A DNA stretch of 64,000 bases from Eukaryota sp. GEM-RC1 (lineage: Eukaryota): NCBI GenBank assembly GCA_040285855.1, contig JAUFOQ010000002.1, forward strand, positions 868,001 to 932,000, read 5' to 3'. The position numbers were made by a program, and so were the translations under genes. Every line of letters starts with the position of its first letter. The stretch's first letter is position 1. The notes below the pieces were generated by a model. The model was not told the DNA's origin and searched no databases. It saw only the letters and a list, made by a program, of their open reading frames with translations. Positions 1 to 64,000 of this stretch are shown here, in pieces.

Positions 1-3000
1 GTTAACAAATTTCATTACATTTTTAAATCTTAACAAGCCCAGTTTGTTAATAAGTTATGATTGGCATTTAGATACTTTTCCGTTTTTAGTATCACGATGT
101 AAAAAATTAGAAGTTGACATTGATTATACAATTGATGATTACATTTCTTCTCTTCCATCTTGGTTCCATAGATGGTGCAAACCAACGGAAATTGGTCCTT
201 TTATTCCCTTGACTTGAATTCAGTATTGAAGAAGTTGTATGTCTTTAGAGGTGGTCGGTTTTTGGAAATCGTGACAACAATTATGATGGACATGAATAAT
301 CATTTGAGAACATTTGAAAGTTTTGACAAGGAAAATGTATTCCTTAAGAGAATATTTCATTCTTTAGACAATCCTCTAGTGTCAGTTGAAGAAATGAAAG
401 TGAAAACTGAAGAACGTCAGAACAAGGAGCCATCTGTAAAACTAAAACCCAAGGCTGAAATCGAGATTCGACTGTTAGCAGAATTAACAAAACTTAATGA
501 ACTTTGGGAATCTACAACTTCAAGAGCCACCTTGTTATTGAACTCAATCAATAAGCTGTATTTGATACAATACCTTCTCTTTGATCTTCTCGATGAAAAG
601 AAACAAAAATTAAGAGAACGACCACCAATGAAGGCGGTGAAGAAACGATTAGATAATGTTGTATCAAAGACTAAAGCGAATTGGATGGAATCTTGTGCTA
701 AGAGAGCTCATCAAGTCAGAGTTCGTGGTACACATATGTTGAAACATTTTTTCATAACTAAGTTTCACAACTCTTTAATTTTCGACAAGGTCAAAGAGAT
801 ACTACCTCCCACTGATTACATTTTCACTGTTAAAGAAGAAATTGAAACAGACACTGAAGTTTCAGACACTGAACAAACAGAAATTTTAAGTGAAGAGTTT
901 GTGCCTCAACAATTAGAAGAAACTGAATTGCCTGTATCTTCAGACCCTCATTTTGTTTTCGATCGTACCATTGAATCGGAAATTTTAGATGAAGACAGTG
1001 GAATTTTAGAAGAAGACGGTGATGAAAATGAAACTGGTGAACCTGAACTTGACCTTTTTACTAAAATTCAAATTACCAAATTTGAATTACCAGACTGGGG
1101 AGCCTACTTTAAGAAGGGTCCAATGGGACAACTGTTGGCCATGATGTGGATTCCAAATCACCAATTTTTCAACAGTATTGATCATATTAAAACTGTGGAA
1201 AACTCTTTAAACAACATCATTTCTAATGTAAAAACAACAACTACAAAGAAGGAGTTCGCCCAACACTTCCTATCAAACTACATCCCTCTGTTAGAAACTG
1301 CTGGTGAAATGGTTGGTAAAGATAGGATCGTGTTTCCAAGTGGACTATATTTGGCTAATCCTCTCGGTTACGTTGCAACCGAAATTATTACAAATTATAA
1401 GAACAACATGAGCCAACACTTCCATGAATATGTTTTTCAAGTTTTTAATTTGGTTACTCAAAAGAAAGAGAGAATGGAAGCTATTACCGACAAAACTGAA
1501 AGACAAGAACTCTGTCAAAGGATTAATGAAGTTAGAGAATTGATTATTAATGGTCAAATTTCCAAAATTAATTTTGAAGATAAGCAAGTTTTTACCAATC
1601 CGGAATCTCACTTGAGTATATTATTCTTCAATTATTTGTTCAATTATTTTGAGGGAAAGATGGAGAAAACGATCTACTATGCTGAAAAGAGTGATCCGTT
1701 ATACTTTTTAAGTCATGCACTGTATTTGAACCGTCTCATTGAAGACTATTGTCCTGGTGTAAGAGCAAACAATCCTTTCCCATTGTCTAAATCTTTAATT
1801 CCAAATCATATCAGGTTCGATACGCAATGGTTCCACGAATTATTTCGTAGGGATATTACCCAACCTGTTAAATATAATGAAGTACGGAAGAATATTTGGG
1901 ATTCAGTATTAAAACCTCAGGCTATTCCAGAGTCATTATCCTATGACTTTAAATACACTTCAATTTCGTCAGACGGTTTAAGTTGTAGTTTGTTGATGAT
2001 GAGGAAAGATTTACTTGATGAAAATGGAAATACTCGTGAAAATGTTACAGCAGTTAATCTTGCTTCAAATGAACGATATATTGATTCCTTAGGTGAAGAT
2101 GAAATTGAAGAACTGAATTTAAAATCTAAGAGAATTGTTGCTGTTGACCCCAACCAACATGATCTCATGTATTGTGCCAGTTTAAAAACTGATGAGGAAG
2201 AATCGTGTGAGAAACTTAAAGTTGATGAAACAACACAATTAATAGAAAATGGAATGGCCAATGCTTGTGTTACAGAAATTGATCTTGCTTCCAATGAACA
2301 ATCTATTGATTCCTCAGGTGAGAAGGAAATTGAGCCCAAGCCAGTTACCCTAGTTAGAACAAGAAAGATTGCTCCATTGTCTTCTAAGAAAAGGGGAAGT
2401 TTAAAAAAAATGAAAAAACAATTAAATGATTGGAAGCAAGACACTAACCCACAACCTGTAAAGTGGAAAAGGCGTGACAAATGGAAGGTGTTCCGATACA
2501 CTGCTGGGGAGAGAAAGGCAGATCTTAACAAATCTAAATGGAAACCAAGAAAAAAATCAGCCATCACAGTTCCAAAAGAATTGACAAAGAAAGAAAAAAA
2601 AGAAAAAAAGCTAAAAAAGAACGAAAGGAAAAACGAAATTTCAAAAAACATGAAAGGAAACGTCGCAACAGAGGAATTGTCGAATTGACGGAAAGCAAAC
2701 GATTACAGAGGTACTCAACTGAGTTTGAGAAGAGTGTGTGGAATGGTCAGAAAATACTGGATTCCTACAGTTCAGATACTCCAAGAAGAAAATCATGTAA
2801 ATTGGAAGAATTTTGAAGATACATTGTTAACAATGAAGTTTTCTGTGCATTAATGAGAACAACCACAACTGGAAAAGCAACTGCTGAAGGATTACATCAA
2901 AAGAAAGGACCATCAAAGAAACTACCTAAGAAAGGACCAACTCAACAAATACCTGCTGCAGCTGAAGGTCTTTATGAAGAAAATTTTTTTAGACGTAGAC

Positions 3001-3855
3001 GCCTTACCCAATATTCAAGAAAAGAACGAAATGAACAAAACTTGGTCCACAGATTAGCTCTCCAATATGGTGATCCCAATGAAGTCGTTGTTGGTTTTGG
3101 GGATTGGAATGACACTCAATTCCGAAGAAGAAGGGGTAAGGCAAGTACAGTAAAAGGAGCGACTCTTCGAAACTTGCTAAGAAAATTTGGATTTAAAGTT
3201 TTCTTAGTTGATGAATTTATGACAAGCAAATGTTGCTCTGCTTGTGCTGCTGAAAACCAGGAAGGTATCTGTTCCAATCCTGACTTTGTCAAAGTCATTG
3301 ATCCTCTGTGGAAGAAGAAGGTACAGAAGGAGGAGAAGAAATTGAAAAAAGAAATTATGGAACACAATCAATTAGGCAATGTTGTGAAACGTAATTTTGA
3401 AGATGAATGGACCAAACAGTTGCCATTCATGAAAGCAAGGTTGAAGAGCAAAAAAGTCTCACCATGGGGCTTAGTCCAATGTGCTAAATGTCATGTCCTC
3501 TGGAATAGAGACTTCAACTCTGCTATTAACATTTATAACATTGTAAATGGAATTATCCAAGGTCAAGGTAGACCTGCTGTCCTCGAGAGACCAAAATCTC
3601 AAACAATAACTATCGAGGATGGTGGGATTACAGATCAGGTTCCCAAGAAGAAGAAGAGTGTGAGTAAGTGTCAGTATTGTCATATGGAAGGTCATACAAC
3701 GGCAAAGTGTCCTCAAAGACCTGTGCCTCCTAAAAGTCCCTCGCAAATGTAGTGAATGTAGGCAACCAGGACATGATAGAAGAAACTGCCCAAGTAAGAC
3801 CCAGAAAGATGTACCCAAAGACTCACAAGTAGAGAATGAAGAACCGGAATCCTGA
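1..3855 (+). CDS. Fanzor1 (TnpB-like RuvC nuclease), copy 1; 5' part lies before the window; split by indels
   Basis: Motifs SISSDGLSCSL, RuvC-I RIVAVDPNQHDL, VVGFGDW, RuvC-II FLVDEFMTSKCCSAC, CAKC and RuvC-III LWNRDFNSAINI. Colinear with the copy at 48873-52750. Frame breaks near 200, 2550-2600 and 3735, plus an in-frame TGA at 2814. The frame after 3735 reads KVPRKCSECRQPGHDRRNCPSKTQKDVPKDSQ...ES* (stop 3853-3855), matching the end of copy 2. Confidence 0.9.
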
Positions 3856-3983
3856 ATCTTATAAGTTAGCTCGTCCTAAAAGGCTTGCAAATGAGTGGCT
3901 CATTGTGGTTCGCAATGTGGATCACAATGTGCCAAACTGTGGAGAGAATGTATTATGCATTTGAAATGAAAACCACAGATCGG
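3856..3983 (+). ncRNA. Putative Fanzor omegaRNA scaffold (right end of copy 1)
   Basis: Non-coding blocks shared with copy 2 (AAGTTAGCTCGTCyTAAAAG, AAACTGTG, TTATGCATTTGrAATGAAA, CACAG). Stems TGGC..GCCA (3896-3934) and CTGTGG/CCACAG (3937-3978). Similarity stops just after CACAG. Confidence 0.75.
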
Positions 3984-33800: not shown

Positions 33801-33907
33801 GATGACTGCGACACAGATACATCAGAGAGAGTTACTTGCTTTCGAGCGAGACGACGTGGTCTGGAACTTGACCGTGTGCTGTTTCGGGACCGTGTATTGT
33901 ATGGCAT
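30866..33907 (-). CDS. ATAD2/Yta7-like AAA+ ATPase with bromodomain (two frame breaks)
   Basis: Motifs GPPGTGKTL, RKGSDIMSKYVGEAERQLR, FFDEIDGL, SVVSTLLALIDG and PALRRPGRFDRE. Second AAA-like LLHGNGDFGQ; bromo-like VPDYSEI...PICL...Y...FRNDL. Confidence 0.9.
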
Positions 33908-34025
33908 AGAAGTGGGAGAAACTTAGTTGAAGGAAGACTGGTCTAGGTGCAGGGAAAAGTTAAAGTCAGTTTGCAAGAACACAGAAATTTTTGTCTGAAA
34001 AATTACTTACTAGTAGATGCAATAC

Positions 34026-41000: not shown

Positions 41001-42118
41001 CTGTTAGACATGTTGGAAGTACTGCTTTTGAAGACAATATAATTGACACTCAAAGTATCCCTCACACTGTTGAAACTATTGGAGATTCTGCATTCCGTAA
41101 TAATAGGGTGGCTTCGCTTACAATGGGAACTTCTGTTAGACATGTTGGAAGTACTGCTTTTGAAGACAATATAATTGACACTCAAAGTATCCCTCACACT
41201 GTTGAAACTATTGGAGATTCTGCATTCCGTAATAATAGGGTGGCTTCGCTTACAATGGGAACTTCTGTTAGACATGTTGGAAGTACTGCTTTTGAAAACA
41301 ATCTCTTACACACGCTCAACATTCCCAACTCTGTCGAAACTATGGGATACGCTGCATTCCGTAACAATAAGTTGACCGCCATTTCATTTGGAACTGCTTT
41401 TAATCACATTGGACCTTCTGTCTTTGAAAATAACATGTTTACCACACTCAATATTCCTTACACTGTAATCACTATTGGAGACTCATCTTTCAAGGGAAAT
41501 CCAATCGGTACTCTTAATCTTGTTAATGACATCACCTCTATTGGAAATTCTGCATTTGAAAGTAATCAAATATCCGCGCTTGCTATTCCTTCTTCTGTTG
41601 TTGCTATTGGAGATTCTGCCTTCCGTAACAACGGTTTGACTAGTCTGTCATTCGGAGCTGGTCTTGAACATATCGGAACTGCTGCTTTTGAAAGTAATCA
41701 AATACCCACACTCTCTATTCCTACATCTCTCACTACCATTGGAGATTTTGCATTTGCTTCAAATACGTTGACCACTTTAACTTTTGAAGGAACCTCACTC
41801 GTTACTGTTTCAGCTTCAACTTTCTCTTCAAACCTGCTGAAATCCGTGACTATTCCGCAAGGAGTCACTTTGATTGATGCTTCTGCATTTTTAAACAATC
41901 TTTTTGAATCTGTTGTTATCAGTAGCTCTGTTGAAACCATTTCTGAAAATGCCTTTTCTTGTACTCCTGATGATCAGTTTACATCTATTCAAATTGATGT
42001 AAATGGTGCTGATGTTCATGCTGAGGCTTTCCCTTCTAATTTCGCTGATGTATATGGTAATAATGGAGCAGGTTCTTATACTAGAGGAGCTGATTTAATG
42101 TGGACACTTGCAGCATAG
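38017..42118 (+). CDS. BspA-like (TpLRR/LRR_5) leucine-rich repeat surface protein with N-terminal TM anchor; several frame breaks
   Basis: About 40 repeats of LxxxxIPxSVxxIGxxAFxxN, TM segment MVIGGLALIAVVLLAIVFSMMYM and a probable 31-nt intron at 38184-38214 (GTTTGT...CTAG). The 5' structure is uncertain. Confidence 0.85.
40890..41296 (+). repeat. 132-bp tandem repeat x3 (two LRRs per unit)
   Basis: Identical unit starts GACAATATAATT at 40901, 41033 and 41165. Confidence 0.95.
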
Positions 42119-45599: not shown

Positions 45600-46700
45600 A
45601 CAACTAAAATTTGATATCATTAAAACAACACCCATCGCTATCAAACCTTACAACAGCTTTGTCCTCATAAAACGAACTCACTGCTAATAAAGCCTTGGAG
45701 ATGATTAGGGGAACTGTTTTAAAAATAGTAAAAACGATCCGATTCAACCATAACATATGATCAAAACGTTTGTTCATCCTATTTTTTACGATTCTTCCGA
45801 AATCGTTTAAAGAATTCAATGCACTTTTTCCTAAACGTCCGTAAATTGAAATAGCAAAGGGGATAATTCGTACTCAACATGTTTTACATGTTTTAAAGCC
45901 ATCAATGGTTTATTGTACTTATCCTGTTTGGCCTGTTCAGAAATGTCTGAAGGAGAAGTTTCAGACGAAGCGTTCTTTAAAGATGTCTTCTTACAAACAT
46001 CCACTGACACTACATCAACAACAAACAATTTGTCTGAAGAAGAAGGGACAACAACATCTGCTCTCCGTTTGCCAAAAAATTGGTTCTGTTTTTCGACATT
46101 ACTATTATTACTTGGTTCTAAAGATCTTAGAAGTGGTTCAACAAATGACTCAATTTTGTAAGACTTACACATAGCATGTATTTGATCTCTTACAGCATCA
46201 TGCATACACGCTCGATAAGTTATGTAGCGATTACAACTTAACAGATGAGAAAACGTTAATTGTTTTCCACATCTATATTGAAGATCATTTGACAAATTAT
46301 ATTGCCATAAATCACAACGAAGTCTCATTGTAGTGGTACATTGATGATCATTTAACAACAAACCATATACTTGTGGAATTTGATTAATTAATGCCACAGT
46401 AGAACTCTCCTTTAAATCAATTTAAAAATTCTAAATTATTATTACATTGTATTATTATTTACTAATAAAAATGTTGGAATGAAGCAAGCTATTCGAAATT
46501 ACTTGAGTTTAGACCTGAGTCGGAGTTTCAATTGGGAGTCAACAATACAATCAGACTGCTTAAAAAGTGGGATCCTTACGCCACCAACACCAAGCAACAA
46601 AGACTGTCAATGGACGAACTCTCAACATTTGATTTATTAGTTAGATCATAGTATTGATAGTTCCAGAAGCAGTTGTAGGAAGATTACCAAATTACAAATG
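45600..46700 (-). pseudogene. 3' part of an RLE-type (CRE/SLACS-like) non-LTR retrotransposon
   Basis: Zinc knuckle CG...HLLSC, HDAVRD, VEP, RRADVV...VVDV and EQAKQDKY fit a restriction-like endonuclease. No RT domain visible. Confidence 0.8.
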
Positions 46701-46727
46701 TATACATTGTACAAGGTTCCTTATTCT

Positions 46728-48617
46728 CAGGGATGGGAAATATTGAATTTCCAATCGAATATTGCCAATCATCATCAATATATATTGATTGATCCGCTGT
46801 TTTTCAATATCAATATATTGCCAGAATTGCCAATACAATATGTCTCTAATAAAACAACATATTTACTTTTTCTTCCCTTACATGCCTGACAATAAAGTCG
46901 TTTGGGGGGTCTTTTATACCCTGTAGTCAACAATTGACAGCCATGAAACCTGGAAATGTGTGTGTGGAGAGATCCGAAAACGAAACACTTAGAGTTCATT
47001 CCTGCAACTTCTGTTGAAGTGGAAAGATTATTTTCTCGCATTACTAGTAAGCTTTTTAAGGGCCAAAATCGATTTTGTTTATCGTCAGCAAGATTTGAGC
47101 AATAGGCATGGCTGCTCTTCAATCGAATGTGAACACTTTTAGAAATGCTTGCCAATCCCACTGGTCTGAAGAAGATGAAATCGTTGATGGAGATGGAGTT
47201 TAGAGTCTCAAACATACATGTTGATCACACTCGTTTTGTCAGTGTGATCACAATCACAACCACAATCACAACCACATCACACGATCACATGTGATCACAA
47301 TCACAAATTATGATCACAAATACTGTTTATTGGGAAAAATCAAGTTGATAATGATGTATTATAATATTTATACATATCGAATCGAACTTACATAACCCTA
47401 CAGCTTTCTTTTGCGAACACGATCTATTTCACTGACCTGAGACCAATCTACATCAATGTGCTCCTCCATATCTGCTCCTTCGATCACAAAAGCTTCTCCA
47501 ATATACTCTTATCATCCTCATCCTCATCGTCATCTGTGATGTCGTCAAAAACATCTCTCAAATCAACATTTGCTACCACATCCATTGTATCTGCCGGTTG
47601 TTCTTCTTCTGCCAACAACACTAAAGACCCATATTTCCACATCCAAAAGAACATCCCCCACTCTAGATTTGGTCTCCAGTATTTAGTTGAGAATACCGAG
47701 ATTCAAATTTTTGGGTTCTTGTTTTAGAAGAGGAGTATTGAAATGAATAATCGTCATGTCATCCAAATCATCGTTGGTCAATTTCAAGTTGTTTCAAGTT
47801 GAAATTTTCAACCTTCTTTGGACACCTGGAAGTCAAATGAAGACCAATTCCTTTCTGTTGTAGATGCTGAACCAGTATGGCCTGTTATTCTTTGAGCTAA
47901 TTGACTCAACTGTGGATAAAGCTGTCTACCAACAGAGTACCACCATTGATGGATAGCGAAATTAATGACTTCAGAAGTAGTAAGTTTTGTGGTAAAATCT
48001 ATTGTATGATATAGTATTGTTTGATATCTTATAGCACCCTTGACATTGAAAGTCTTCCTTACCTGATGTGTTTTCATGAACTTTCACGAGCTGGTAAAGC
48101 GGATTGTCCTTGTTACAATCGGATTGGAGAAAAGGAAGTGATGTCATTGTTCGGAAAGGGTAAATGTAGTTTTCGAGCACCAGATTAGACTCTAAACTTG
48201 TGCTCTATACTGTAGAGTGTTGTTGAACAATTAAAACTGGTCTAGGTTTATCACATACATGTATTATATAAATGACGTCACTTCAGTATGGATCACATTT
48301 GAATCACAAGTGATGTGATCACAAATAAAAGGCCAGTGTGATCACATGTGATCACAATCACAATGTGATCACATGTGTTTGTGATCCACAAGTATGGTCT
48401 CAAAACTTAAGACTATTTGTTCGCAACAAATTGTTGCATTTCTTTTGTAGTATAAAATTTAGATAGGTTTTGTTTTGATATCTTTCATTAATTTAAGTGT
48501 ATTAACTATACAATCTACATATTGCAATATTGGCAATATATTGGAGCCACTACTGTATTGATTGGTGAGCTGTTTTCCAATACCAATATATTGCCAATCC
48601 AATATTTCCTATCCCTG
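46728..48617 (+). mobile_element. Non-autonomous hAT element (outer)
   Basis: TIR CAGGGATrGGAAATATTG, TSD CTTATTCT and relic FIPATSVEVERLFS at ~46990. Confidence 0.92.
47213..48396 (-). mobile_element. Non-autonomous hAT element (nested)
   Basis: TIR CATACwTGTkGATCACA, TSD GTCTCAAA and relic WWYSVG..YPQLSQLA...SASTTERNWS. Confidence 0.92.
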
Positions 48618-48714
48618 CTTATTCTCGGTGAGAATCACTTAACTTCAGTTCTACTTCTACAATGTGTAGAAGTGTAGTATTTTTTCTGAGATTTCTTTTC
48701 TTTTCTCTTTCTTA

Positions 48715-48872
48715 CCACTGTGAATTTCATTCCAAATGCATAAAGGCATAACCCTTCACATTTTCATGATCTCATGAGCAAGCTCGTAAGCAAACTCATG
48801 AGCAAAATTCACAGTTTGACAAATAAATGTCCTCATTCGCAAAGTCTTTTAAGACGAGCTAACTTCATAGAT
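48715..48872 (-). ncRNA. Putative Fanzor omegaRNA scaffold (right end of copy 2)
   Basis: Homologous to 3856-3983. Perfect 10-bp closing stem CTGTGAATTT/AAATTCACAG (48718-48727 with 48805-48814), with inner hairpins. Confidence 0.75.
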
Positions 48873-51800
48873 TCAAGATTCCTGATCTTTCTGGTTTACG
48901 TGTGAGTCCTTGGGTACATCTTTCTTAGGCTTATTTGGACAAGTTGCTCTGTTATGTCCAGGTTGAAAACATATACCACACTTGTTAGGACCTCTGACTT
49001 TTGTTAGAGGACGCTTTGCTTTACCCTTACCCTTACTCACAGTCTTTTTCTTAGGAATCTGATCTGTATTCCCGCCATCCACGACAGGTGTTGTTTGAGA
49101 TTTTGGTCTCTCGAGGATGGCAGGTCTACCTTGACCTTGAATGGTTCCATTTACAATATTGTAAATATTGATAGCAGAATTGAAGTCTCTATTCCAGAGA
49201 ACATGGCATTTAGCACATTCAACTAAGCCCCATGGTGAGACTTTTTTGCTCTTCAATCTTTCTTTTGATAATGGCAACTGGTCTGTCCATTCTTCATCAA
49301 AGTTACGCTCCACAATATTGTGTAATTGATTGTGTTCCATAATTTCCTTTTTTAATTCTTTCTCTTCCTTCTGTAACTTCTTCTTCCAATGAGGATCAGT
49401 GACTTTTATCCTTTCAGGATTGGAACAGATACCTTCGTCGTTTCTGGAAACACATGCAGAGCAACATTTGCTGGTCTTAAATTCATCAACTAGGAACACT
49501 TTAAATCCAAATTTTCTCAATAATGTCCGAATTGAAGCACCTTTCACAGTCGATGCTTTACCTCTTCTTCGACGCAAAGCAGTGTCGTTCCAGTCTCCAT
49601 ACCCAACAACGACTTCATCTGGGTTTCCAAACTGGAGAGCAAATCTGTGAAGCATGTTTTTCTCACTTCGTTCCTTTCTTGAATATTGTGTGAGACGATT
49701 CCTTCTAAACCACCTTTCTTCGTAAATTCCTTCAGTATTTCTTTGATCAGTAGTGGGTGATCGTAGTAAAGAACAGGTAATTTCTTTACCAAGAACAAAA
49801 GCAGAATACAGAGTCAAATCACAAGATTTACTGCCTGGCGAGTTAGAGCCCCATTGATCTAAAATTTGTTGCCCATTTATGTCAATGCGTCTGCCATCTG
49901 GACTGTGAATAAATTGGGTAGAATATTGTTGTAACCGTTCGGATTCAGATAAACAGTAGAGATTGTATAGTCTTATTTTCTTCTCCAGCTTCCTCTTCTT
50001 TCTCTTAGCTCTTTTTCTTTCCTTCCTTGTTTTTTTCTTTTCCATGGAGACTTTTTAATATCGGCATTGCGCTCCCCAGCAGTGTATCTGAATACTTTCC
50101 AATTGTCTCGATTTTTCAACTTGACAGTTGTTGGTTTGTCAATAGTGGGTGCGTCTTTCCAATCCTTCAATTCCTTTTTTAATTTTTTCAAGCTTCCTTT
50201 TTTCTTTGAAGATTTTGGAGAAATCTTTCTTCTTCTGAGATTGGCTGATGTATCGAAACCTTCGATTTCCTTTTCCTCCTTAGATTTTAAAGAAGCACAA
50301 TACATCAAATCATGCTGATTAGGATCAATAGCAACAATTCTTTTGGATTTCAAATTTAAGTTTTGAATTTCTGTGGAACTCAAAGAATCAATGTACCTTT
50401 CAGTAGCTGTGTAGTCAACTGCTTTCACCTTCTTATGAGGATTTCCTTTCCCATCAAGCAGATCTTTCCGCATCATTATTAAACTACAACTAACTCCATC
50501 TGTAGAAATAGAACTGTATTTGAAGTCATGAGACAATGACTTTGGAAGACACTTTGGTTTCAAAACTGAGTGCCAAATATCTTTTCGAACGTCATCAAAG
50601 CTTCCTTTAATTTCTGATGCATAAACTTCTTTAAACCATGTAGTATCCAATCTGATATGATTAGGAATCAATGATTTTGTTAGAGGAAAAGGATTATTGG
50701 CAGTAACACCAGGACAAGAGTCTTCAACAAGACGTTTCAAATACACTGCATGACTTAAGAATTTCAAAGGATCTACTTTTTCAGCATAATAGATTGATTT
50801 CTCCATTTTACCTTCAAAAAAAGTAAACAAATAGTTAAAAAATAGTAAACTCAGTCTAGACTTGGGATCAGGAAACACTTCAACATCTTGAAAATTAATT
50901 TTTGAAACTTCCCCATTAATGATCAACTGTCTGATTTCATTAAGCTTTGTACACAACTCTTGTCGTTGATTCTTATCACTAAGCTTGTTAAGTCTATCTT
51001 TTTCAGGGTAACCAAATTAAATACTTGAAAAACATATTCGTGAAGATGTTCACACATGTTGGTCTTGTAATTTGTAATAATTTCTGTTCCCATGTAATGC
51101 AATATACGAGATAAACGATGACTACTGGGAAACACAATCCTATCAAGTCCAACGGAATCAGCAGCTAGTTCTAAACGAGGAATGTAATGCATCAAGAAGT
51201 GTTGAGCAAACTGATTTTGAGTTGAGCCATCATTTGTGTTAGAAATTATGTTTGTTAACGATTCTTGTACAGTCTCAATATGATTCTGATTGTTTACAAG
51301 TTTGTAGTCCCTAATCGTCATCATAGATAACACTTGTTCCATTGATTTCAACGTAAAAAAATTCTTCCAGTATGGCAATTCAATTTTGGTAGTTTGAATT
51401 TTAGTCCAAAGGTCAGGTTCAGGTTCAGCACTCGCATCTTCAATATTTTCTAATTTAACGGGAGGAGCAGTAGCATCGATAGACTCTGAATGTACATCTG
51501 TTTCTTCTTCAGTTGACTCATCTGTATCAGAATGCATTTCTTGCTTAACAGTTACATTTGGAACAGTAGCAGGCAGTAACTTCTGAATGTAACCTAAAAT
51601 ACCTGAATGGTGAAAATTATGAACAAAAAAATGTTTCAAAAGAGAGAACCACGGACTCTTACTTGATGAGCTCTCTTAACACGAGATTCAATCATTCTAA
51701 TTTTGGATTTCATGATAACATTGTCCAGTCGTTTCTTAACCACTTTCATTGGTGACTTTGAACGTAAGGTTTGCTTTTTGGGATCCAATAGGTCAGCCAA

Positions 51801-54800
51801 CAAGTACTCAATCAGAGGTAATTGTTGAATTGAGTTCATCAACAATAGCGGTCTTGTCGATTCCTTGGCCCAAAGTTCATTTACTTTTCCAAATTTCGAA
51901 TAAATTTCTTTTTAATCTTATCGACCTTCACTTTGGGATTGTCTGGAACTAAAACATTAATACTGTCAATTATGCCATGCAAGTTTTGGACATTATTGAC
52001 CAATTGAACTTCATCAGGATCAGAGTCATGATTAAGATCTTCCAAGCGTTTGACAGTTTCATTTTTAGAAAAATTATTCATTTCAAGAAAAATTTGAACA
52101 ACATTTTCCAAAAAACGGCCACCAGTAAAGACATAAAAATTCTTCAGTACAGCATTCAAATCGAGACTAAAAAACGGACCAAAAGTTGTTTCCTTACACC
52201 ATTTGTTGAACCAAGAGGGAATATAGGGTTTAAATTCTGGAAAAGTAAACGTTGTATTGATTTTGAGGACTTTACAACGTGATACAAGAAAGGGAAATGT
52301 ATCTAAATGAAAATCATAACTCACAAACAATCGTGGACAATGTTGAGTTATGAAGGAAATGAAGTTTTTAAGCATACTGGATTCACTATCTGAAATATGT
52401 AAAGTACACAAATCCAAGTTTGTAGTATCAAAATTGTTATGAGAAAATAAATGTTTTTCATTAAACTCATTATGATCAATGATCTGGATGAAAATTGATA
52501 CAATCGGATCAACAGAAGAATCACGTTTAACTTCTAATTGATCTTCAGCTTCAACTTCAACAGTTTCAATGTCATCATCATCTTGAACAAGTTGAACATT
52601 TCTGCCATTAATTCTTTCTTTTTGGCAAAATCACTTTGAACATGAATTAAACAAAAAGTTGGCAGATTGTTCCAAAGTAGAGGGGATTTAAGAAAGTCTT
52701 GAATTTGTATTTCTTGTTCGATAACCTCAGTGTGTAGATTTACTTCCATATTAAGAATTTCTTTTGAATTGGCGATGGATACGACATAATGGAGGCCTGT
52801 GATTTTTGTGGTAGTTCAGAAGGTGGTAGTTCAGTTAATGATGATAGTTCAGATGGCGATGATAGTTCAGGTAGTGATAATTCAGATGATTCCAATGTGG
52901 ACATACGGCGGTGAGTCTTTCGTATTGGAGTGGCACCAGTTGAAACAAGGGAGCTGGTAGTTCTAAATTTACTTCGTTTAATTAAAGGTGAACCTCGTGG
53001 TGATGGAATATCAGAAATTTTGGCCTTACTTTTTTTAGTGCTTAAACCAGTAGATGTTTTAGTGCTAGCAAGACGTTTACCTGAGATTGGTGACGCAGAA
53101 ACATGCGACAACTCAACAGGACTAAAAGTTTCAAAATGTTCCAAAATTTTTACTTCGAGACTCATGAACATCAATAGTGGTGCAACACAGCAGTTCTTTA
53201 ACATCAGTCCACCTTATGACCACAGATTGATCTACATTCATTAAAAGTTCAATGTATTCGAGAACACAAAAACCAGAGTCAGTTAGAGTATGTTTGATAT
53301 TTGATGGAATAAACCGTATGTCTCTGATTTCAAGGACTGATGAAACTGAATAAATTTGTGACACAATTGAAAATAAATTGGAGGAAGTTGGTGCAACTGG
53401 CGTTTGGTTAGCAGGAAATTCTCTGGCATAATCATCCTCATCGTAGGTCGGATCAATGAATAAAATATGACTTGTATGAGATGAAATGATCAGAATAATT
53501 AAACCCCAATGACGACCATCAGCATTAAGATCGCACATTGCACTATTGACAGGAACAAGTAGCATTTGTTGGTGTTTCTTTTCACCACATTGGAAGAATT
53601 TCTGCGTCAAAAAATCTGAAAGTGGATATTTATCATAGGGTTGGTCACCATATAATAACGGATATAAATCAGTTGGCCTAATTACATAGTCATAAAAGAT
53701 TAAACCTGTTGATTCCACAAGTATTTTGGAATATTTGATGAACAATTGATCGTCAACATAAGTAAACAATTTCTGAATCTGTTTACGGAGATCTGCAGCA
53801 TTAAGTTCATTGTTAACTTGGATTAAAGCACGTTCAATAGATATCAAAGATAGATTGATGCGATCCCTTGAAATGAGTTCAACAAATTTTTGAATATAAC
53901 CAATAACATAAATACCACAGTGATTAGGAGTCTGTGTCTTGGTGATGTTGACCCTCTGTACGTTCAATGTTACTTTCCTACATAATTCATCTACAACAGA
54001 ACTTAGATAAGAAGAACCAACAATTGGATCCACAAATATCGCGTTGTTTTCCGCACAGTCTATTACCATTAGACCCCAATGAACTCCTCCAGATCCACCT
54101 GTTGTATTCATAGCATCGTTGAGAGGAACAGCGAAGTATCTGGTGCTTCTCTCCCGAGCGTCATCAATCTTGTTTTGGCAGTATCCATCAGTGAAAAAAT
54201 CTGACCACATCTCACCGGGAGTAATGAAATAGCATTCCCAATCGAGGTTTGCTTCTTTGAATAGGTGTTTTGAGTATTCGGAAAAGGCGTAATCATCTAT
54301 CCATTGGCCAGGATTCAGATACTCTAGGGAGTCTTTGGACCACGGTCCGGGATTGGACTCAATGTCACCGTCGGCGGTGAGGTCTTTTGGGGACGGATGT
54401 CTACACGGTTTTTCAATAGTACTCGTCCGGTAGACAGAGAGTGAGAGTAATAGTGATGGAAGAATGACTTGAAACAGAGGATGAGACGAGATCAATGTAC
54501 ACGAAGAGGAGAAATTTAAGAAGGGTTGTAAGAGCAATTGGTAGCAACAGAATTGCAACTTCCTTGACACAACACCAAGAACTACATGATCCATTCGAGA
54601 GTCAAACCGCACAATGGATTGACTGTCGAAATAGTTATAAAATCCCGTAGCATTGAAGACGAAGGAACACAATTTGACGTAGCTTATGGGGGAGGGACTC
54701 AGCAACAGCGTAATGGCGACGGGATTCAAGAGACTTGGCAGCAACTCGTAGCAACACAATTGGGGCTTCTTTGGCAACACAAAAGCGGACCTTGACACAA

Positions 54801-55278
54801 CACCAAGAACTACATGATCCATTCGAGAGTCAAACCGCACAATGGATTGACTGTCGAAATAGTTATAAAATCCCGTAGCATTGAAGACGAAGGAACACAA
54901 TTTGACGTAGCTTATGGGGGAGGGACTCAGCAACAGCGTAATGGCGACGGGATTCAAGAGACTTGGCAGCAACTCGTAGCAACACAATTGGGGCTTCTTT
55001 GGCAACACAAAAGCGGACCTTGACACAACACCAAGAACTACATGATCCATTCGAGAGTCAAACCGCACAATGGATTGACTGTCGAAACAGTTCAAAAATC
55101 CCGTAGCATTGAAGACGAAGGAACACAATTTGACGTAGCTTATGGGGGAGGGACTCAGCAACAGCGTAATGGCGGAACTAGAGAACTTGAGCACCGTTTC
55201 CAACATTTGAACCAACCAAGAGTCAATCCGCACAATGGATTGACTGTTGGAGTAGTTTAACGTTTGTAACAGAGACAT
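48873..55278 (-). CDS. Fanzor1 polyprotein, copy 2: leader - 2A - 2x SENP8/Ulp1-like - PolB exonuclease-like - RuvC Fanzor - zinc knuckle (8 frame segments)
   Basis: RuvC motifs RIVAIDPN, GYGDW, FLVDEFKTSKCCSAC and LWNRDFNSAINI. Seven joins (~53140, 52780, 52615, 51885, 51640, 51000, 50033) are each repaired by +/-1 nt in a homopolymer; three are confirmed by the unbroken frame in copy 1. Confidence 0.8.
54343..54384 (-). other. 2A / StopGo ribosomal-skipping motif DLTADGDIESNPGP
   Basis: Exact match to D(V/I)ExNPG|P, in frame and directly before the protease domain. Confidence 0.9.
54562..55174 (-). repeat. 228-bp tandem repeat (~2.7 units) in the leader upstream of 2A
   Basis: Near-identical units with a 228-nt (76-codon) period, plus a partial copy at ~55219-55250. 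Confidence 0.95.
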
Positions 55279-56335: not shown

Positions 56336-56797
56336 ATCAGCTTGACAAAAATGAAAGACTAGAAGTGAAAATTCTTGATAAGCACCCGAAATAAAATCCA
56401 CAGTAATCAGACAGATGAAGAAAATGTCATAAGTGAAGATAATAGATGTGTTGTTAAGTATGTCAGAAGAAAATCTATAAAATTCCTCCCTTCATATGAT
56501 CATCAGCAACACTTTCAAGAACAAGAGGAACACTGCAATTACGACACTCCTCGACATTCAAATACCGGCTCTTACAGAAACATATGGCCTTTCGTGTGGG
56601 CTGACTCTCCTGCCATGGACGCTCAGTAGAATCAGGATAAGGAATCCTGGTCTATATAAAGTGAAAACTCCTGTGAAAAAGGAGAAAGTCCCGAAAATAT
56701 TAGCTGAACTTTCAACTTTTTGTGAAAACTTCATCTCTGCCATTGCATTGGTTTTTTCTTTGAACCAACCAAAGTCATTTTAATTAATTTCAATGGC

Positions 56798-57790
56798 GTG
56801 TGTACCGAACAAACTGTATCTAACCCTTTGGATACAGCCCCATGTGATAATTTTGTAAAAATATTAAAACAAAAATGGGATCTCTCACTTCAAGAGTCTG
56901 AGACTGTTCCAGTTGCTCATGAAGTTACAGAATCAATTTCAACTGACTTAACAGTTGAACTTTCTGAACCTGTTGCTTTAGAACAAGTTGATGTTACTAT
57001 TCAAACAGAATGTACTCTTGACTCAAGTACTGAACTTTCTGAATCTGTTGAACTTACTGTGGCTCTATCACAATCTCGAAATCCTTTGGACGCTATCCCA
57101 GTTAAAGAATTTAACCGTGTATTTTATTGTGAAGCTAATAGAAAATTGTGGGGAAAATCATCTAGGGAATTATTGGAAATTCTTCAGAACGATGATGAGT
57201 CTACAGATGATGATGATGAAGATGAAGATGATGAAGAAAACGAAAATGAAGAAAACAATTTACAAGTATTGTCAGCCAGTGATGGAGACGCTTGCTTTAG
57301 TTATTGGTGTAGCATCCCAAAAGGGGTTTGTAAGGTCTTACTATCTACTGAAACTGAAGTTATGATTAATGATCCAGAACATTATGCCAGAAAAAATGCT
57401 TGGGAACTGTTAAATGTGGTTGTTACACAGCAAATGAAGATTTTATGTCCTCTGTGTGCTTTTGGGGACCCCATTGGGTCACATAGAGGAGTTGGACATT
57501 TTTTCTTGGTGGAATGGTTCTTTGATTTAAATTCTCGAAATCATATTTTTAACATATATGATAGTATGAACTTTTCATGTATGAAGAAATTTATTATTTT
57601 ACCTTTTCGAACCTTGTTAAGGAACATCAACAGTGGAGGGAGGATCAGGAATTACCTTGGATTTAGTGAAACAGAAGCACAAGGTACCTTATCTTCAGAT
57701 AGAATGGCATCAACGAGTGCTAGGAGAGAGATCTCATGTTTGATTTGTAAGATCAAGGGGGTGACTTTAAAAGACTCGGATATGTATTGA
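56798..57790 (+). CDS. Ulp1/C48 protease-like protein, apparently truncated (His and Asp present, catalytic Cys not seen)
   Basis: KILCPL...GHFFLVEW...FNIYDSM after an acidic stretch; no QxxxxDCG follows. Confidence 0.5.
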   Translation: MCTEQTVSNPLDTAPCDNFVKILKQKWDLSLQESETVPVAHEVTESISTDLTVELSEPVALEQVDVTIQTECTLDSSTELSESVELTVALSQSRNPLDAIPVKEFNRVFYCEANRKLWGKSSRELLEILQNDDESTDDDDEDEDDEENENEENNLQVLSASDGDACFSYWCSIPKGVCKVLLSTETEVMINDPEHYARKNAWELLNVVVTQQMKILCPLCAFGDPIGSHRGVGHFFLVEWFFDLNSRNHIFNIYDSMNFSCMKKFIILPFRTLLRNINSGGRIRNYLGFSETEAQGTLSSDRMASTSARREISCLICKIKGVTLKDSDMY

Positions 57791-58043
57791 AGTGCTCGAA
57801 AGTAGTCCAAGGACAAGAAACATTGCTTGTCATCAAGCTCAATCTCAGCACCAACATCACATTTTACAAAGACATATAATTTGACATATGAGACGATAGA
57901 AAGCTGATGATGGTAGAATAAGCTGCTAAGAATCAGCTAAGAACCATCATATTCCATACAGTTGAGGTAGATATATAATTTATAATGAAAGGAAAGTTTC
58001 CCTGCACAATCTGCATCTTAAACATCACCACTTCACACACTCA

Positions 58044-60089
58044 ATGTCCATTATCAACACACTTACAGACGAACAGGCTCACGTCTTCCAAGCTATAACT
58101 CATGCTAGACCTTCTAAGCGTAAGAATTTCTTCATTACTGGTGGTGCCGGATCGGGCAAGTCTTACCTACTGTACTGTCTTAAACAGTGGTGGTCTAATG
58201 CGGGTTCCAAGCTAATGAGACCCAATGGCCATGTCTTTTTTACTGCTACTACTGGTGTTGCTTCCACTGTCTTTGGTGGTCAAACCCTACACTCTCTCTT
58301 TGGTTATAATTTTATCCGTAATGAAAAACCAATATCTGATGTCATTCGCTCTATGCCTTCAAGTGTTAAGTCTGTTTTACGAACAATTAGTGCTCGAAAT
58401 TCAATGCTTGTTATTGATGAAATTTCAATGTTGACTGCTGAATTATTCAACAGAGCATCTGATATATTTAAAGATTTAATGAAGTCTCAGTTACCATTTG
58501 GTGGACTTCAAGTTGTAATTTTTGGTGATTTTTTGCAACTTGCACCAATTGTAAAGTCTGATTCAAACACACGTAAGGTCCTTCAACTTTCAGACTTTAC
58601 GTTTTCATCACAGTCTTGGAAGGATTTGAATTTAAATTTTATTGAATTATCTGGAAGTATTCGACAACAAAGTGATGTCAATTTTTATAATTTTTTGAAT
58701 GAACTACGTCTCGGACTTTTTGATGACTATATGAAACATATTTTATTGAAACATAAGTCATTAGCCAAAAATATTGAAAGTCCAACCAAATTATTTGCTA
58801 GAAACAAGGATGTCGCAGACGAAAATTTAAAGCAATTTGAATTATTATGTGAACAAGGGAATGAAAATGTTGAATTTCATTCCCTCGATAAGTTCAATGA
58901 AACCTTAATTAAATCAGAAATTGGTAAAAGTTGGGCATTTGGTAAGCCTAATGAGGAACAAATGGAAAAGGCTGTTGGTTTAAATTTAAAAAAATTATCA
59001 AGTAGGCTAAACGATTTTGCCGAACAAAAATTTCACTGTGTCGTCGGGGGTTTGGTAATGTTTACCCAAAACAAACCAGATCTGGGCCTAGTAAATGGGT
59101 CAAAAGGCAAAATTATTGATTTCTCTGAAAGTTCACATTTCATTAATGTAAGATTCGGGAGGGACGAAGAACCAATCAAAATTATTCCGACTAAATTTGA
59201 AATTGAGGTGTTGAATGAGAAGAAAAAGCCTGTTATTATAGCATCCCGATTGCAATATCCTCTTCGTCCTTGTTGGGCAATAACAGTCCATAGATCTCAG
59301 GGTCTAACAATTGAAGGAATTGAAGTTTCCTTAAATTTTTGGGAGTATGCCCAATTGTACGTCACATTGAGTAGGGTGAAGAATTGGAACTCAATTAAAA
59401 TTTTAGATATTTCTTCCAGATTTCCCAAACCAAGAATTGATCTTTATCAGTGGTATTATTCCACTTTTCACCCCCCTCGACCAGTTACAAAACCTCTTTA
59501 TCCTTTGTCTTTACAAAATGAAAATATTGTTAGAAATTGGCCTTCTGTGTTGAAAACTTTTGATGCCTTTTCGTCCAATATGATTTCTAGTGTTGGTGAT
59601 AGTATGGAAACTGTTGATGTTCTTGATCCAGTCAATGAAGAAATTGAGGAAGATTTGGTGGAAAAAGATGTTCCAAGTATTGAAAATTTGAATACCACTT
59701 CTAATTCAGTTTTAGAATTATTCGATAATGAAGTTGTTGTCTCTGGAAGTGATGGTGGAGATGACGAAACTGATGATGATGACGATGCGTCGTCTAGTAT
59801 GAATGATTTTGTTGTGAATGATGATGAAGATGAGTGTCTCAATGGTCAAAGTGTAAGTGCCATCAATTCTGATTTAATTTTTACCAAGCCTGTGCCAAAA
59901 CTGAAAAAAACAACAGTTACTACTTTGCCTAAATTGAGACCAAATCTATTGTCTCGAAATACTCTCAAACCAAATTTGAATTTACCTAGTTTGAAATTAT
60001 CAAAAAAGTTACAGATCATGAGGACACTGAAGTCGTCAACAGAATATCAAATTCACTTGATCTTCAGACAGACTTTGAAAACAACTTGA
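58044..60089 (+). CDS. PIF1-family 5'-3' DNA helicase with acidic C-terminal tail
   Basis: Motifs FITGGAGSGKS, TATTGVAS..FGGQTLHS, VIDEISM, PFGGLQVVIFGDFLQLAPI, RQQSD, LVNGSKG, QYPLRPCWAITVHRSQGLT and QLYVTLSRV. Confidence 0.93.
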   Translation: MSIINTLTDEQAHVFQAITHARPSKRKNFFITGGAGSGKSYLLYCLKQWWSNAGSKLMRPNGHVFFTATTGVASTVFGGQTLHSLFGYNFIRNEKPISDVIRSMPSSVKSVLRTISARNSMLVIDEISMLTAELFNRASDIFKDLMKSQLPFGGLQVVIFGDFLQLAPIVKSDSNTRKVLQLSDFTFSSQSWKDLNLNFIELSGSIRQQSDVNFYNFLNELRLGLFDDYMKHILLKHKSLAKNIESPTKLFARNKDVADENLKQFELLCEQGNENVEFHSLDKFNETLIKSEIGKSWAFGKPNEEQMEKAVGLNLKKLSSRLNDFAEQKFHCVVGGLVMFTQNKPDLGLVNGSKGKIIDFSESSHFINVRFGRDEEPIKIIPTKFEIEVLNEKKKPVIIASRLQYPLRPCWAITVHRSQGLTIEGIEVSLNFWEYAQLYVTLSRVKNWNSIKILDISSRFPKPRIDLYQWYYSTFHPPRPVTKPLYPLSLQNENIVRNWPSVLKTFDAFSSNMISSVGDSMETVDVLDPVNEEIEEDLVEKDVPSIENLNTTSNSVLELFDNEVVVSGSDGGDDETDDDDDASSSMNDFVVNDDEDECLNGQSVSAINSDLIFTKPVPKLKKTTVTTLPKLRPNLLSRNTLKPNLNLPSLKLSKKLQIMRTLKSSTEYQIHLIFRQTLKTT

Positions 60090-60170
60090 ACAATACTTAT
60101 AGTATTGCAATGCAGACAGAAACAAAGGTTCTCACAATTGTCCACGTCCACAATATTGTACCAGAGAAAA

Positions 60171-61912
60171 GGTAAATTGACAAGTTACCAGACAACATTG
60201 GGTAAATTGACAAAACTTTTTGAGGAATTGTCGCACGACATTTTTTTTCTCGTGTCATAAAGATTGTCACTATATCATCAATTTTGAACGTCAATTACAA
60301 GTTTTTATTGATGCAGAATATCATCATATAACTACTGAGTTCTGGGTTGACGGCGTGGTGGCTCATCGTTCTCTACACAAGTTCTTCTGTTATGGCCCCG
60401 TTGTCCACACACAGTACACGTTACCCTTCTGTCGATATTCTGGATATCAGCTCGAACAACCTCGTTGGAAGTTTGGTTTCTTGAAGGATTTCGTGGTCTG
60501 CCTCTTTGAGGGATATCTTGTCTTCTCGGATTCTCAGGTCGTTGTTGCTCGGATAACAACTGTTTCAGTTTAGGGATCAATAAGCCCTTCTGGATGGAGG
60601 AAAGACTCTCAATGCTGTTCCAAAGAAACATCAGTTCAGAAGAGGTATCAAGAGGGGGATCTTGAGGAATTGGAGGATCTAACATAGCAATAGATGGCTC
60701 TGGGTTTAATTGCCATTGAGGATGGAAAGAGTTGACAGAAAGCTGCTCATCAGCAGCGACCGGCAGCAGTGACCGGCCCATTGGTGTAATCTACTTAGCC
60801 ACTGACTGTCAACATATTTTACAAGTGAATGTTCCTCACCTAGAGTGGATACAATTGTTTCCCAAGTTGCAAAAAAATCTTCTTCTGATGCTGCATAAGC
60901 CATCTGCTTAAAACAGTTGTTGAATGAGTCTAATTCTTGACTCAAACCAAAGCACTTCATCTCTTTGGTTTCATGATGTGCCATAAGCACAATAAATGAC
61001 TCGCATGTGGCACTAAAGATTGGATTGCATTACACAACGCCAAATCTCTGTCAGTAACCACAACAGACAATTCAGCCATAGATGCGAAAACATTTTGAAA
61101 TGCCTGTAATGCCCATCTGTAGTCATTTTCCGTTTCAGTGGCAAGAAAAGCAAATGCTAGAAACAGTGACTTATTCTGCATTGTTTTTGTGCCATATACA
61201 AGCAATGGCATTGAATGGATATTTGCATTGTACGTACAGTCCAAAGATAGCACGTATTTGTACCTATTACCTAGTTCAACAGCATCAATGTGTGTAAGAA
61301 ACAGATTTCTCACAGTGTTATCTTCATTGAAGCAGACATCGTACTTCCAATCTGCTCTAGTTTCAAGAGTTCTGAATAAACTGTCAATCTCGCGGAGACC
61401 ATCTGTCTGAATTTTTTTCCATCTCTTTTCCAATTGCTAAGTTCATCATACAAGAGAGGACACGCTGAGATATCGAGGGCATCAGGGGTTCGAGAGGGAT
61501 ACAGGACTCTAAGGGTTTTCAGGATATCACGTGAGGTTTGACCAGAAGCACAAAGACTGTGAATTTCTTGAGAATGATCAAGGCTCCACCAACGTCGGAA
61601 AGTAGCATGAGCGGCTAAGTTTTCAACAAAGGAGTGTTGAGAGTGGATCCCATCAGTGTCTACGTTGCGCCAAAAGCCATCCTTGAGGTGGATATAAATG
61701 CGAAACGTGCACCCTGTTTTCTTGGACTGGTTATGAGCAGCATATCCACGATTTTCCCTGTCACAAATGAGATAGCAGTAGGAATCACCAGAAGATCTAA
61801 GACTTAGAGCAAAACCTTGTTCAAAAGCCCATCGTCTGAGTGTTTGCTCTAGATCGTCTCGAGTGTCAAACTCGTAAAGAGGTGGCTTTGTAATTCGAGG
61901 ATCCTGTGACAT
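60171..61912 (-). mobile_element. MULE/Mutator (FAR1-like) transposase, internally deleted and frameshifted
   Basis: WAFEQGFAL...SKKTGCTF, LDCTY...MPL, AFAFL..E...Y.WAL, VTDRDLAL...LLCLWHI and C-terminal RGRP...CTVCGQRGHNRRTC. The catalytic-E/SWIM region is missing. GGTAAATTGACAA repeats at 60171 and 60201 mark the probable end. Confidence 0.88.
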
Positions 61913-61913
61913 A

Positions 61914-64000
61914 CACCGGCGGCAGTAATTAGTCTCACTGGAAAATTAGTCTCACTACAAAATTAGTCTCAGTGAGACTAATTATGTCCTGGACCTTTCA
62001 GAATCGCCCAAGTGAGACTAATTATGTCATGAATCCAACAACCTTAAAATTATCCATGTTTATCATTCTACAGTAGTATTTTATTTAACACCCATATTCA
62101 ATTACATGCAATTGTGTTCAGACAATGAATACATCTAATTTACTCTTCTTCACAATAAAAACCATCTTATCTGATATGAACAACCCTTTCTCATCATCTC
62201 CTCTTGAACGAGCATTTGCACGTGTTGAACGCTCAGTGCAAAACAATCAAGTCTTACCCCCAAACGCTTCTGATGCCAATAATCCCCCACTTGTACAAAT
62301 TGATGACGTACATCCCTCTCAAGAAATCGAAAACGCCTCGCAATCGAATGAGCCTGATAAATTACCAAAAACAGGAACTAAAAGAAGGGTTCAGCAAGTA
62401 TCCACTAAACAAGCACGCAAAACAGTTCTTCAATGGATGGAAAATTGGGTAGTGGAGCAAGACACTGATAAAGGCTTGATGGCTGCAGCTATCAAACAGT
62501 TTCCTGATCACTTCAGGGCGTCTCCAAACGCAAACATTAAAAAAAGCGTCTAACTGGTGGAAAGAACGTCATTCCTTCTACAGAAGCTTAGAAACCGAAA
62601 AGCTTTCACTGCAAAGAGTGCAAAACAGCACCGTAAAGAAAGTTTTGTTGAAGGCGAACAGCGGACGTGGAAGAAAAAGAGCAGCGTGGGTTGATTGGCT
62701 CCACAAAGAACTGCTACGAGAGTTTGAGTTCATGAAGAAGGCCGGTTGTAAGATGGATACAAGTATATTAGAAGATGTGGCGAAATATGTCCTAAGATCA
62801 AGAAATCATGCCATCTTCCAGCCAGACTGGATTGATCCTGACAACAAGTCAGACAAGACTCTTATTGACCGTATTCAAGCGAAATGGATTCATCAGTTCA
62901 TGGTTCGTTTCAACATTGTTCCTAGAACACAGACGGGAAAACTGTCTGTTGGTGCAGTGAAACAGGAAGAAATTGAAAGGGCTGTTGCCTTTCATTTAGG
63001 AAATGTATCGAGAATGTTTGCTCAAGGATTAGATGACCGTCAAATTTGCAATTTTGATGAAACCCATTTTCGAATTAATATGGACAACAAAAAAACCTTG
63101 GGTTTTATTGGTGATGAAGAAGTGCGATATACTGATGTTGTTAGTGGCTCTCAAGGAATGACGTTAGTAGTCAAGTTGACTGGTGGCCCAAACGCTCGTA
63201 TTGATGTTCCTTTTATTATTTTTCAGAATCAGGCTGAAAGTCACCCGATCAAAAACATTGGTGATAAAGATCCTGGAGTGGCATATCGAACAGCCAAGAA
63301 GGGTTTTATGACTTCAACAAAGTTTGCAGAGTATTTTGAGGAACGAAGAGTGAACAAACGACTCACTAACAACAAGCAGCAAATATTGTTTTGTGACAAC
63401 GTCCCCACTCACAAACTGACTCCAAGAGTGAAGAATGCATTGACCCGCTTGAATGCTGTTGTAAGCTTCCTTCCGCCAAATGCAACCCACCTTGTACAGC
63501 CATGTGATACTTTCATCATTGCTATGATTAAAAAAGCATGGTCTCAATCTTGGGATAGGAAAAAACTGGAAATGACACAACTCGGTGATTTCAGCAACTC
63601 TGGTAAGCTTCCAAATCCAGGTAAAAAGTATTTCTTACAGCTTGCGAAACAAGTTGTTCAAGATATCAATCGAAAGAGAAATGAGAACGGGGATTCATTT
63701 GCTAGAGTGGCCATGATGAGATGTGGATTAGGATTGGATGACGAGGGACAATGGAATATCAAGCATTTGAGTCCCGAACTTCAAGCTATCGTGGCAAGAT
63801 ACAGAACTAACTTCGATGGCGAAAGACCGGATAACTACGAAGATGATTATTGGAATGAAATCAGTGATGTGAAAGACGATGGCGACTTTCAAGCTCCTGA
63901 GGATGAATCAGAAGAAGACCATGAAGAAGAAGAAGTGGTCAATGTTCCAGAAGAAGAGATCATTGATTTAATGAGTGACAATGATGATTGCTATACATTA
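61914..64000 (+). mobile_element. Pogo/Tigger-like DDE transposon; transposase from 62125 runs off the window
   Basis: TA|CACCG end with AATTAGTCTCA repeats. After one extra A at ~62545 the frame reads NFDETHF...GFMTS...LFCDNVPTH...FLPPNATHLVQPCD. Confidence 0.9.

Follow-up and report, generated by a model that had tools for sequence, protein, structure and literature searches.

A Fanzor1 transposon family with predicted 2A, protease and exonuclease modules in Eukaryota sp. GEM-RC1

Locus and modules of the predicted product

We analyzed a stretch of 64,000 nucleotides (the window) from Eukaryota sp. GEM-RC1, contig JAUFOQ010000002.1, positions 868,001 to 932,000. We assume that the organism is the same metamonad that PMC11316075 (partial text) lists as Skoliomonas sp. 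GEMRC, and the host of the elements described here is likely a free-living anaerobic protist. On the minus strand, eight overlapping frame pieces run from an ATG at 55278 to a stop codon at 48873 (Table 1). Their tiled conceptual product has 2,136 aa, in agreement with the initial annotation, which had described gapless frames of about 2,100 codons. One surplus base is present at join J1 (~53150) and one base is lacking at each of J2 to J7 (~52765, 52620, 51888, 51642, 51003 and 50040). Every join had been ascribed to a single-nucleotide homopolymer indel. All seven are indeed located at A or T runs of at least four, but residues in sister copies suggest that the base absent at J2 is not necessarily one of the run. 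The domain order was recovered as proposed, with the reservations that the second C48-like domain is not matched by Pfam on its own and carries Ser in place of Cys, and that the exonuclease domain lacks its catalytic acids. In the second copy, copy A, an ORF at 172-2685 (plus strand, 838 aa) already joins the end of the exonuclease domain to RuvC-I; a frame break at ~3721 (plus strand) falls between two zinc knuckles.

Table 1. Positions in the window of the two element copies, their predicted modules and a host gene used as error control
Feature	Position	Strand	Remarks
Copy A (A-type subfamily, 69-78% DNA identity)	1..3978	+	truncated by the window edge within the exonuclease domain; right end same as that of the copy ending at 48718
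ATAD2/Yta7-like host gene	30869-33922	-	split over overlapping frames; error control
Putative 15-nt guide	48703..48717	-	flank directly outside the right end; unpaired; differs from copy A
Putative omegaRNA scaffold	48718..48880	-	closing stem terminates at the right end, CACAG, 48718
CCHC zinc knuckle and stop codon	48873..48980	-	C-terminal
Fanzor1 nuclease: N-terminal and REC region, RuvC, C4 zinc finger	49090..51749	-	D 50326, E 49484, D 49187; J5-J7 inside
PolB-family 3'-5' exonuclease domain and helical connector	51760..52674	-	catalytic acids lost; contains J3 and J4
Ser/Lys/Pro-rich linker, probably disordered	52675..53133	-	J1 and J2 at its ends
C48-like domain b	53134..53710	-	His and Asp retained; Ser (53277) for Cys; His for Gln
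C48/CE-clan protease a	53764..54342	-	His 54081, Asp 54030, Gln 53934, Cys 53919, all intact
2A/StopGo-type motif DLTADGDIESNPGP	54343..54384	-	predicted skip ahead of the last Pro, codon 54345
Leader ORF: ATG, 76-aa unit x2.7, hydrophobic stretch	54385..55278	-	no recognisable domain
Candidate left terminal inverted repeat	56388..56403	-	13/16 positions match the same copy's right end

The leader contains a 228-bp tandem repeat (2.7 units, 54562-55174, minus strand), is unrelated to the leaders of sister copies and had nothing similar in a protein atlas search (best score 0.78). The leaders of P0116 and P0117 are built on a different tandem repeat of ~41 aa, and repeat-built leaders ahead of the 2A seem to be independently recurrent. 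The DIESNPGP motif that had been placed between leader and proteases is in frame and canonical. For D(V/I)ExNPGP the chance expectation in the six frames of the window is 4e-5, and five proteins carry it in frame inside a long ORF. The complete 14-mer is identical in four copies (the window copy, P0114, P0116 and P0117), while the adjacent proteases are 40% identical and the leaders unrelated; in P0124 the motif is DGDVEANPGP at residue 108. Failure of the 2A to skip, or lack of translation of the repeat leader, would result in a single uncut protein or in a start at a later Met. We regard this as very unlikely, since the motif is canonical and invariant over divergent cassettes, keeps its position in P0124 and is preceded by 311 codons of open frame. 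On the other side stand leaders that differ wholly between copies and match nothing, the many weak or inactive 2A-like motifs of retrotransposons and the dependence of 2A activity on upstream context, such that a canonical motif by itself does not guarantee skipping (PMC3708506, partial text); among the papers listed by a literature search there was no test of 2A in a metamonad.

C48 peptidases are recognized by a His-Asp-Cys triad and an oxyanion Gln. Domain a has all of these residues and a profile match (PF02902, E 2e-5, 25.1 bits against a cut-off of 20.7). Among solved structures it matches best a CE-clan effector of bacteria, with NopD type III effector chains at E 1e-6; its initial identification as SENP8 is not supported, and SENP8 gave no match at E<=1. 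Neither is a reading with two active proteases supported. Domain b is 31-35% identical to active C48 domains, but its catalytic Cys is replaced by Ser in all four copies seen (the window copy, P0004, P0006 and P0007), so that it is likely a pseudo-protease. At least four C48 variants, three of them with the full triad, occupy the protease slot, and they are pairwise only 23-40% identical. Because P0124 combines 2A, exonuclease and Fanzor1 without any protease, the proteases appear to be swappable inserts behind the 2A that lie outside the family core. The CE clan includes viral maturation proteases, and C48 is placed directly behind the 2A as viral proteases are. The C48 protease could thus process its own polyprotein in viral style, freeing the exonuclease-Fanzor part and leaving host modifiers alone. 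Such self-processing is decidedly unlikely: the identical core exists in P0124 without a protease, the linker has no Gly-Gly site, and swapped cargo accounts better for the divergent variants in the slot than a fixed processing role. As to the virus-like polyprotein proposed at the outset, processing into many parts is not supported, as there is a single 2A site and no support for protease self-cleavage.

The exonuclease domain was detected by PF03104 in frame piece 4 of the window copy (E 4e-6), with scores above cut-off in this piece and in sisters, and PolB structures were matched as well. Active PolB exonucleases carry the motifs ExoI (D-x-E), ExoII (D) and ExoIII (Y-x3-D). In the window copy the ExoI position reads H-V-Q (aligned by eye), the ExoII D is replaced by T and YxxxD is absent; as judged from these motifs, its exonuclease domain is likely dead. 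Catalytic acids are lost in the A, B and C subfamilies. In P0124, ExoI, ExoII and ExoIII acidic motifs are all present, and the ExoII motif decays step by step along the series P0124, P0123 and then the C, A and B types. The N-terminal half of P0124 found PolB exonuclease clusters in the protein atlas at 0.85-0.86, a result that we take as a lead only. P0075, P0123 and P0126 are fragments of additional subfamilies, some with two zinc knuckles, and the exonuclease motif of P0123 is intermediate. A scan for the exonuclease motif found it in none of 90 metagenome stretches and in one of 47 viral stretches, the latter a match of 39 aa.

The Fanzor1 core with its intact D/E/D triad was confirmed. 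The RuvC E is located six residues ahead of the C4 zinc finger (Cys at 49466), just as described for Fanzor1 with its split RuvC D/E/D (PMC13565253, partial text), and a TNB zinc finger was found in piece 8 (Pfam E 1e-8). The published Fanzor1 motif D-X(125,275)-[TS][TS]xx-C4-X(5,50)-RD (PMC3627910, partial text) is kept in order; its first gap slightly exceeds the range in B-type copies (283) and in P0124 (281), with a Lys-rich insert, and is within the range in C-type copies (254). The C-type sister P0108 (1,182 aa) extends from the exonuclease to RuvC-II and matches archaeal PolB as well as the solved structures of SpuFz1, GtFz1 and PpFz1 (E 3e-14 to 3e-10). Kinship to characterised Fanzor1 proteins spans REC and RuvC. 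A HMMER search of 1.84 billion representatives gave 194 matches at E<=0.001, and those listed were mostly Fanzor-like proteins of 600-800 aa. The CCHC knuckle noticed earlier is present at the C-terminus, although it stays under the Pfam cut-off (E 0.007).

Fanzors have been described to use a 3' RNA with a guide derived from the flank (PMC13565253, partial text). The structured 3' end reported in the initial annotation was recovered, with a folding z of -4.75 for the 48873-55278 copy and of -3.48 for copy A; two further segments that were tried gave -2.16 and -3.08. The closing stem contains one compensated pair between the two copies, which are similar up to the common CACAG and divergent beyond. 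From these two copies, the structured 3' end and the unconserved flank of 14-15 nt fit a putative Fanzor omegaRNA with its guide. No Rfam family reached threshold, and the best guide target within the window had 13/15 matches. At the locus neither a target-site duplication nor a confirmed left end was found, and no transposase is present inside the element. The family is multi-copy and occurs on at least 12 contigs, as told apart by length in up to 15 records per cluster.

Sister copies and the origin of the frame breaks

A sister-protein search returned seven matches, all of them family members and five of them named Eukaryota sp. GEM-RC1, as are all named sisters that read through a join. 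By cluster, the C-terminal part of the B-type is represented by 26 records, the A-type by 14 and a C-type by 13 (mixed fragments). Joins were judged from sister gene models, that is from proteins and not from sister DNA, by motif over 263 proteins with variant spellings missed. Records that read through and records with the same break numbered 3 and 1 at J1, 4 and 0 at J2, 3 and 1 at J3, 7 and 1 at J4, 8 and 1 at J5, 4 and 8 at J6, and 4 and 13 at J7; at J1, J4, J6 and J7 one of the broken records is the piece from the window itself, and P0007 and P0074, which look predictor-spliced, were left out at J2, J3 and J7. A single ORF, as had been supposed, is thus borne out by sisters that cross every join and by the unbroken 1,473-aa relative P0124. 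Three proteins that read through J7 have 644 aa, the length expected after correction by one base, and there is therefore no intron at J7. A GT..AG intron of 181 nt over J2 and J3 was ruled out by the read-through sisters at both joins, and this stretch encodes the first exonuclease strand.

The initial annotation had named copies lacking the upstream domains as evidence against the fusion. P0114, P0116 and P0117 keep 2A and protease, so that this objection does not apply to them, but P0124 has no protease and the C-type models start just before the exonuclease. P0117 unites leader, 2A, C48, linker, exonuclease and Fanzor N-terminus in one ORF of 997 aa, and P0046 and P0055 extend from the exonuclease through RuvC-I. 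The 2,136-aa product was pieced together from such overlapping sisters, and 2A, protease and complete Fanzor never occur in one record. P0124, the sole protein above 840 aa among the 150 matches listed, is unbroken and contains 2A, linker, PolB exonuclease (PF03104, E 5e-13) and an entire Fanzor that includes D/E/D. A search with the copy A ORF among proteins of 1,468-4,190 aa yielded no family member in 6,633 candidates; it was weak, as P0124 was missed too. A quick tree with midpoint root, built on 82 rows out of 93 because 11 were too short, unites the six family cores and one fragment in a clade (SH-aLRT 99), in which the branch that holds P0124 splits off first. Because P0124 splits earliest and ExoII decays stepwise from it, a core of 2A, exonuclease and Fanzor1 is likely ancestral. 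The exonuclease was then likely inactivated later and the proteases inserted behind the 2A.

Hence we conclude that the element is a member of a multi-copy Fanzor1 transposon family with a single long gene. As far as sequence comparison can tell, the domain architecture is real, previously undescribed and built on a bona fide Fanzor1. We are highly confident that the family architecture is real, whatever the cause of the breaks in the window copy.

The breaks in the 48873-55278 copy could be due to assembly errors of the long-read homopolymer type, to true mutation or, at J7, to programmed frameshifting. We consider assembly error probable. For the named sisters, MinION R9.4 reads were used for the assembly, which was corrected with Illumina reads afterwards (PMC11316075, partial text). 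All seven breaks are at runs of at least four and six are single-base losses, no homologous stretch of this copy contains an in-frame stop, and similar breaks occur in the host ATAD2-like gene and in a PIF1 repeat family, in which one A-run is broken in six records and open in five. One A-run in the A-type copies is likewise broken in five and open in two. The proteins that read through J7 disagree on which A-run is the longer one, P0090 and P0099 against P0097 and P0098. These observations speak against the view that, although the architecture is real, decay has turned the window copy and many others into pseudogenes, with true mutations amplified from defective masters. We rate this view as rather unlikely, even though it agrees with the shared breaks at J7 and J6, an in-frame TGA in copy A (2814-2816, plus strand) before RuvC-II, the loss of catalytic residues from protease b and the exonuclease, and the Illumina correction of the assembly.

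That J7 represents programmed -1 frameshifting on an A-AAA-AAA heptamer, which would limit nuclease output, is highly improbable. An in-frame A7 run is found at the matching place in both window copies, and the J7 break recurs in 13 records. However, J7 is open in four B-type records, in the C-type P0076, P0101 and P0108 and in P0124, the break position shifts among adjacent runs, and the sequence past J7 is purine-rich with no stimulatory fold evident by eye.

Known systems and proposed function

The family resembles the Fanzor1 proteins SpuFz1, GtFz1 and PpFz1 in sequence match, D/E/D, spacing from E to zinc finger and a structured 3' end with an unconserved flank behind it. According to PMC10711439 (partial text), known Fanzor1s are up to about 800 aa long, whereas here the Fanzor moiety alone has ~960 aa, is preceded by leader, 2A, proteases and exonuclease (together ~1,170 aa), and ends in a CCHC tail. 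Like the 2A-bearing non-LTR retrotransposons L1Tc, Ingi, CR1, L2 and Rex1, it bears a canonical D(V/I)ExNPGP close to the start of a long ORF in a mobile element (PMC3708506, partial text). Unlike these, it has no reverse transcriptase or APE, the 2A stands ahead of protease, exonuclease and RNA-guided nuclease, and the element is presumably a DNA element. Intact C48 domains as transposon cargo are known from the Ulp1-like proteases of Kaonashi MULEs and from other transposable elements (PMC6117577, partial text), but here they are fused in frame to a Fanzor, in single or tandem cassettes that can be swapped and of which one is likely inactive. With the PolB proofreading exonucleases of Pol delta and archaeal PolB the family shares PF03104, and P0124 aligns to Pol delta at ~365-489 including ExoII; it differs in the absence of a polymerase domain, in the Fanzor fusion and in the loss of the acids in the A, B and C subfamilies. 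TREX2-SpCas9 is reportedly an engineered 3'-5' exonuclease tethered to an RNA-guided nuclease; in contrast, the present fusion is natural, PolB-derived and transposon-encoded, and its activity is predicted.

We compared 131 other Fanzor loci from metagenome and viral contigs (51/51 and the best 80 of 123), 93 of which had at least 2.5 kb upstream. Exonuclease, C48 and 2A were found in none of them, and the longest ORF had 821 aa. The literature, including the available parts of PMC10530073, PMC10432273, PMC3627910, PMC10711439 and PMC13565253, likewise yielded no natural fusion of Fanzor to a protease, exonuclease or 2A, in line with the earlier statement that no description of this architecture was known; supplements or Repbase might list long Fanzors.

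Given these findings, we consider it fairly likely that the locus holds a Fanzor1 transposon gene, its breaks being most likely assembly errors, that gives rise to a 2A-released leader and a protease- and exonuclease-tethered RNA-guided nuclease. Skipping at the 2A would free a leader of 311 aa and leave a protein of ~1,825 aa beginning at the protease, in which an active C48a, a likely dead C48b and a likely dead PolB exonuclease are tethered to the nuclease. The Fanzor would bind the 3' RNA with 15 nt of flank as its guide and cut empty target sites, and repair would copy the element back, as in the homing role proposed for TnpB and Fanzor (PMC13565253, partial text). Judged by its domains, the protein likely functions as such a homing-type nuclease with a tethered ubiquitin-like-protein protease. 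For the protease substrate and the exonuclease role we infer from analogy. The protease probably acts on chromatin or repair proteins near the cut, or on its own protein, and would take off SUMO, NEDD8 or ubiquitin; removal of ubiquitin-like marks would counter host control. C48b could bind these marks but leave them intact. The exonuclease may have been active in the ancestor, trimming 3' ends of the cut or the guide RNA, and may now be a nucleic-acid-binding module. More tentatively, we propose a new Fanzor1 lineage with a core of 2A, proofreading exonuclease and RNA-guided nuclease and a swappable protease slot, which would cut the guided site, shape the ends by the exonuclease (predicted to be active in P0124), remove host ubiquitin-like marks and reach dozens of copies by homing, perhaps without a transposase of its own.

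Published descriptions present Fanzors as compact nucleases of 500-800 aa with a single purpose. The present family shows in-frame accessory enzymes, and its gene product is likely two to three times the usual Fanzor size, with its own protein-editing tools. The natural exonuclease fusion parallels engineered Cas9-exonuclease editors, and the swappable proteases point to conflict with host control of chromatin or repair. A StopGo motif is present in a presumed DNA transposon, and 2A sequences have been reported chiefly from RNA viruses and retroelements (10.64898/2026.09.24.754024, partial text). With the exonuclease predicted to be active or dead, with no, one or two proteases and with many copies carrying different guides, the family forms a built-in series in which the role of the Fanzor and the processing of breaks can be tested, P0124 being the best candidate for bench work.

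Neighbouring genes and elements

Just upstream of the Fanzor gene, at 56726-61945, lie an Ulp1-like ORF in which a His and Asp motif is visible by eye and Pfam finds nothing, a PIF1 helicase that belongs to a family of 19 records, and a broken MULE transposase. These genes possibly constitute one separate MULE-type element, and their closeness to the Fanzor family by locus tag is weak (by eye). A DDE_1 (pogo-like) transposase in two frame pieces follows at 62089-64000 (plus strand). On the other side, the right end of the Fanzor element adjoins hAT-like subterminal repeats, and 45831-48620 contains remnants of a hAT dimerisation domain and a retroelement-like fragment. A BspA-type leucine-rich repeat gene is present in broken pieces at 38496-42115 (plus strand).
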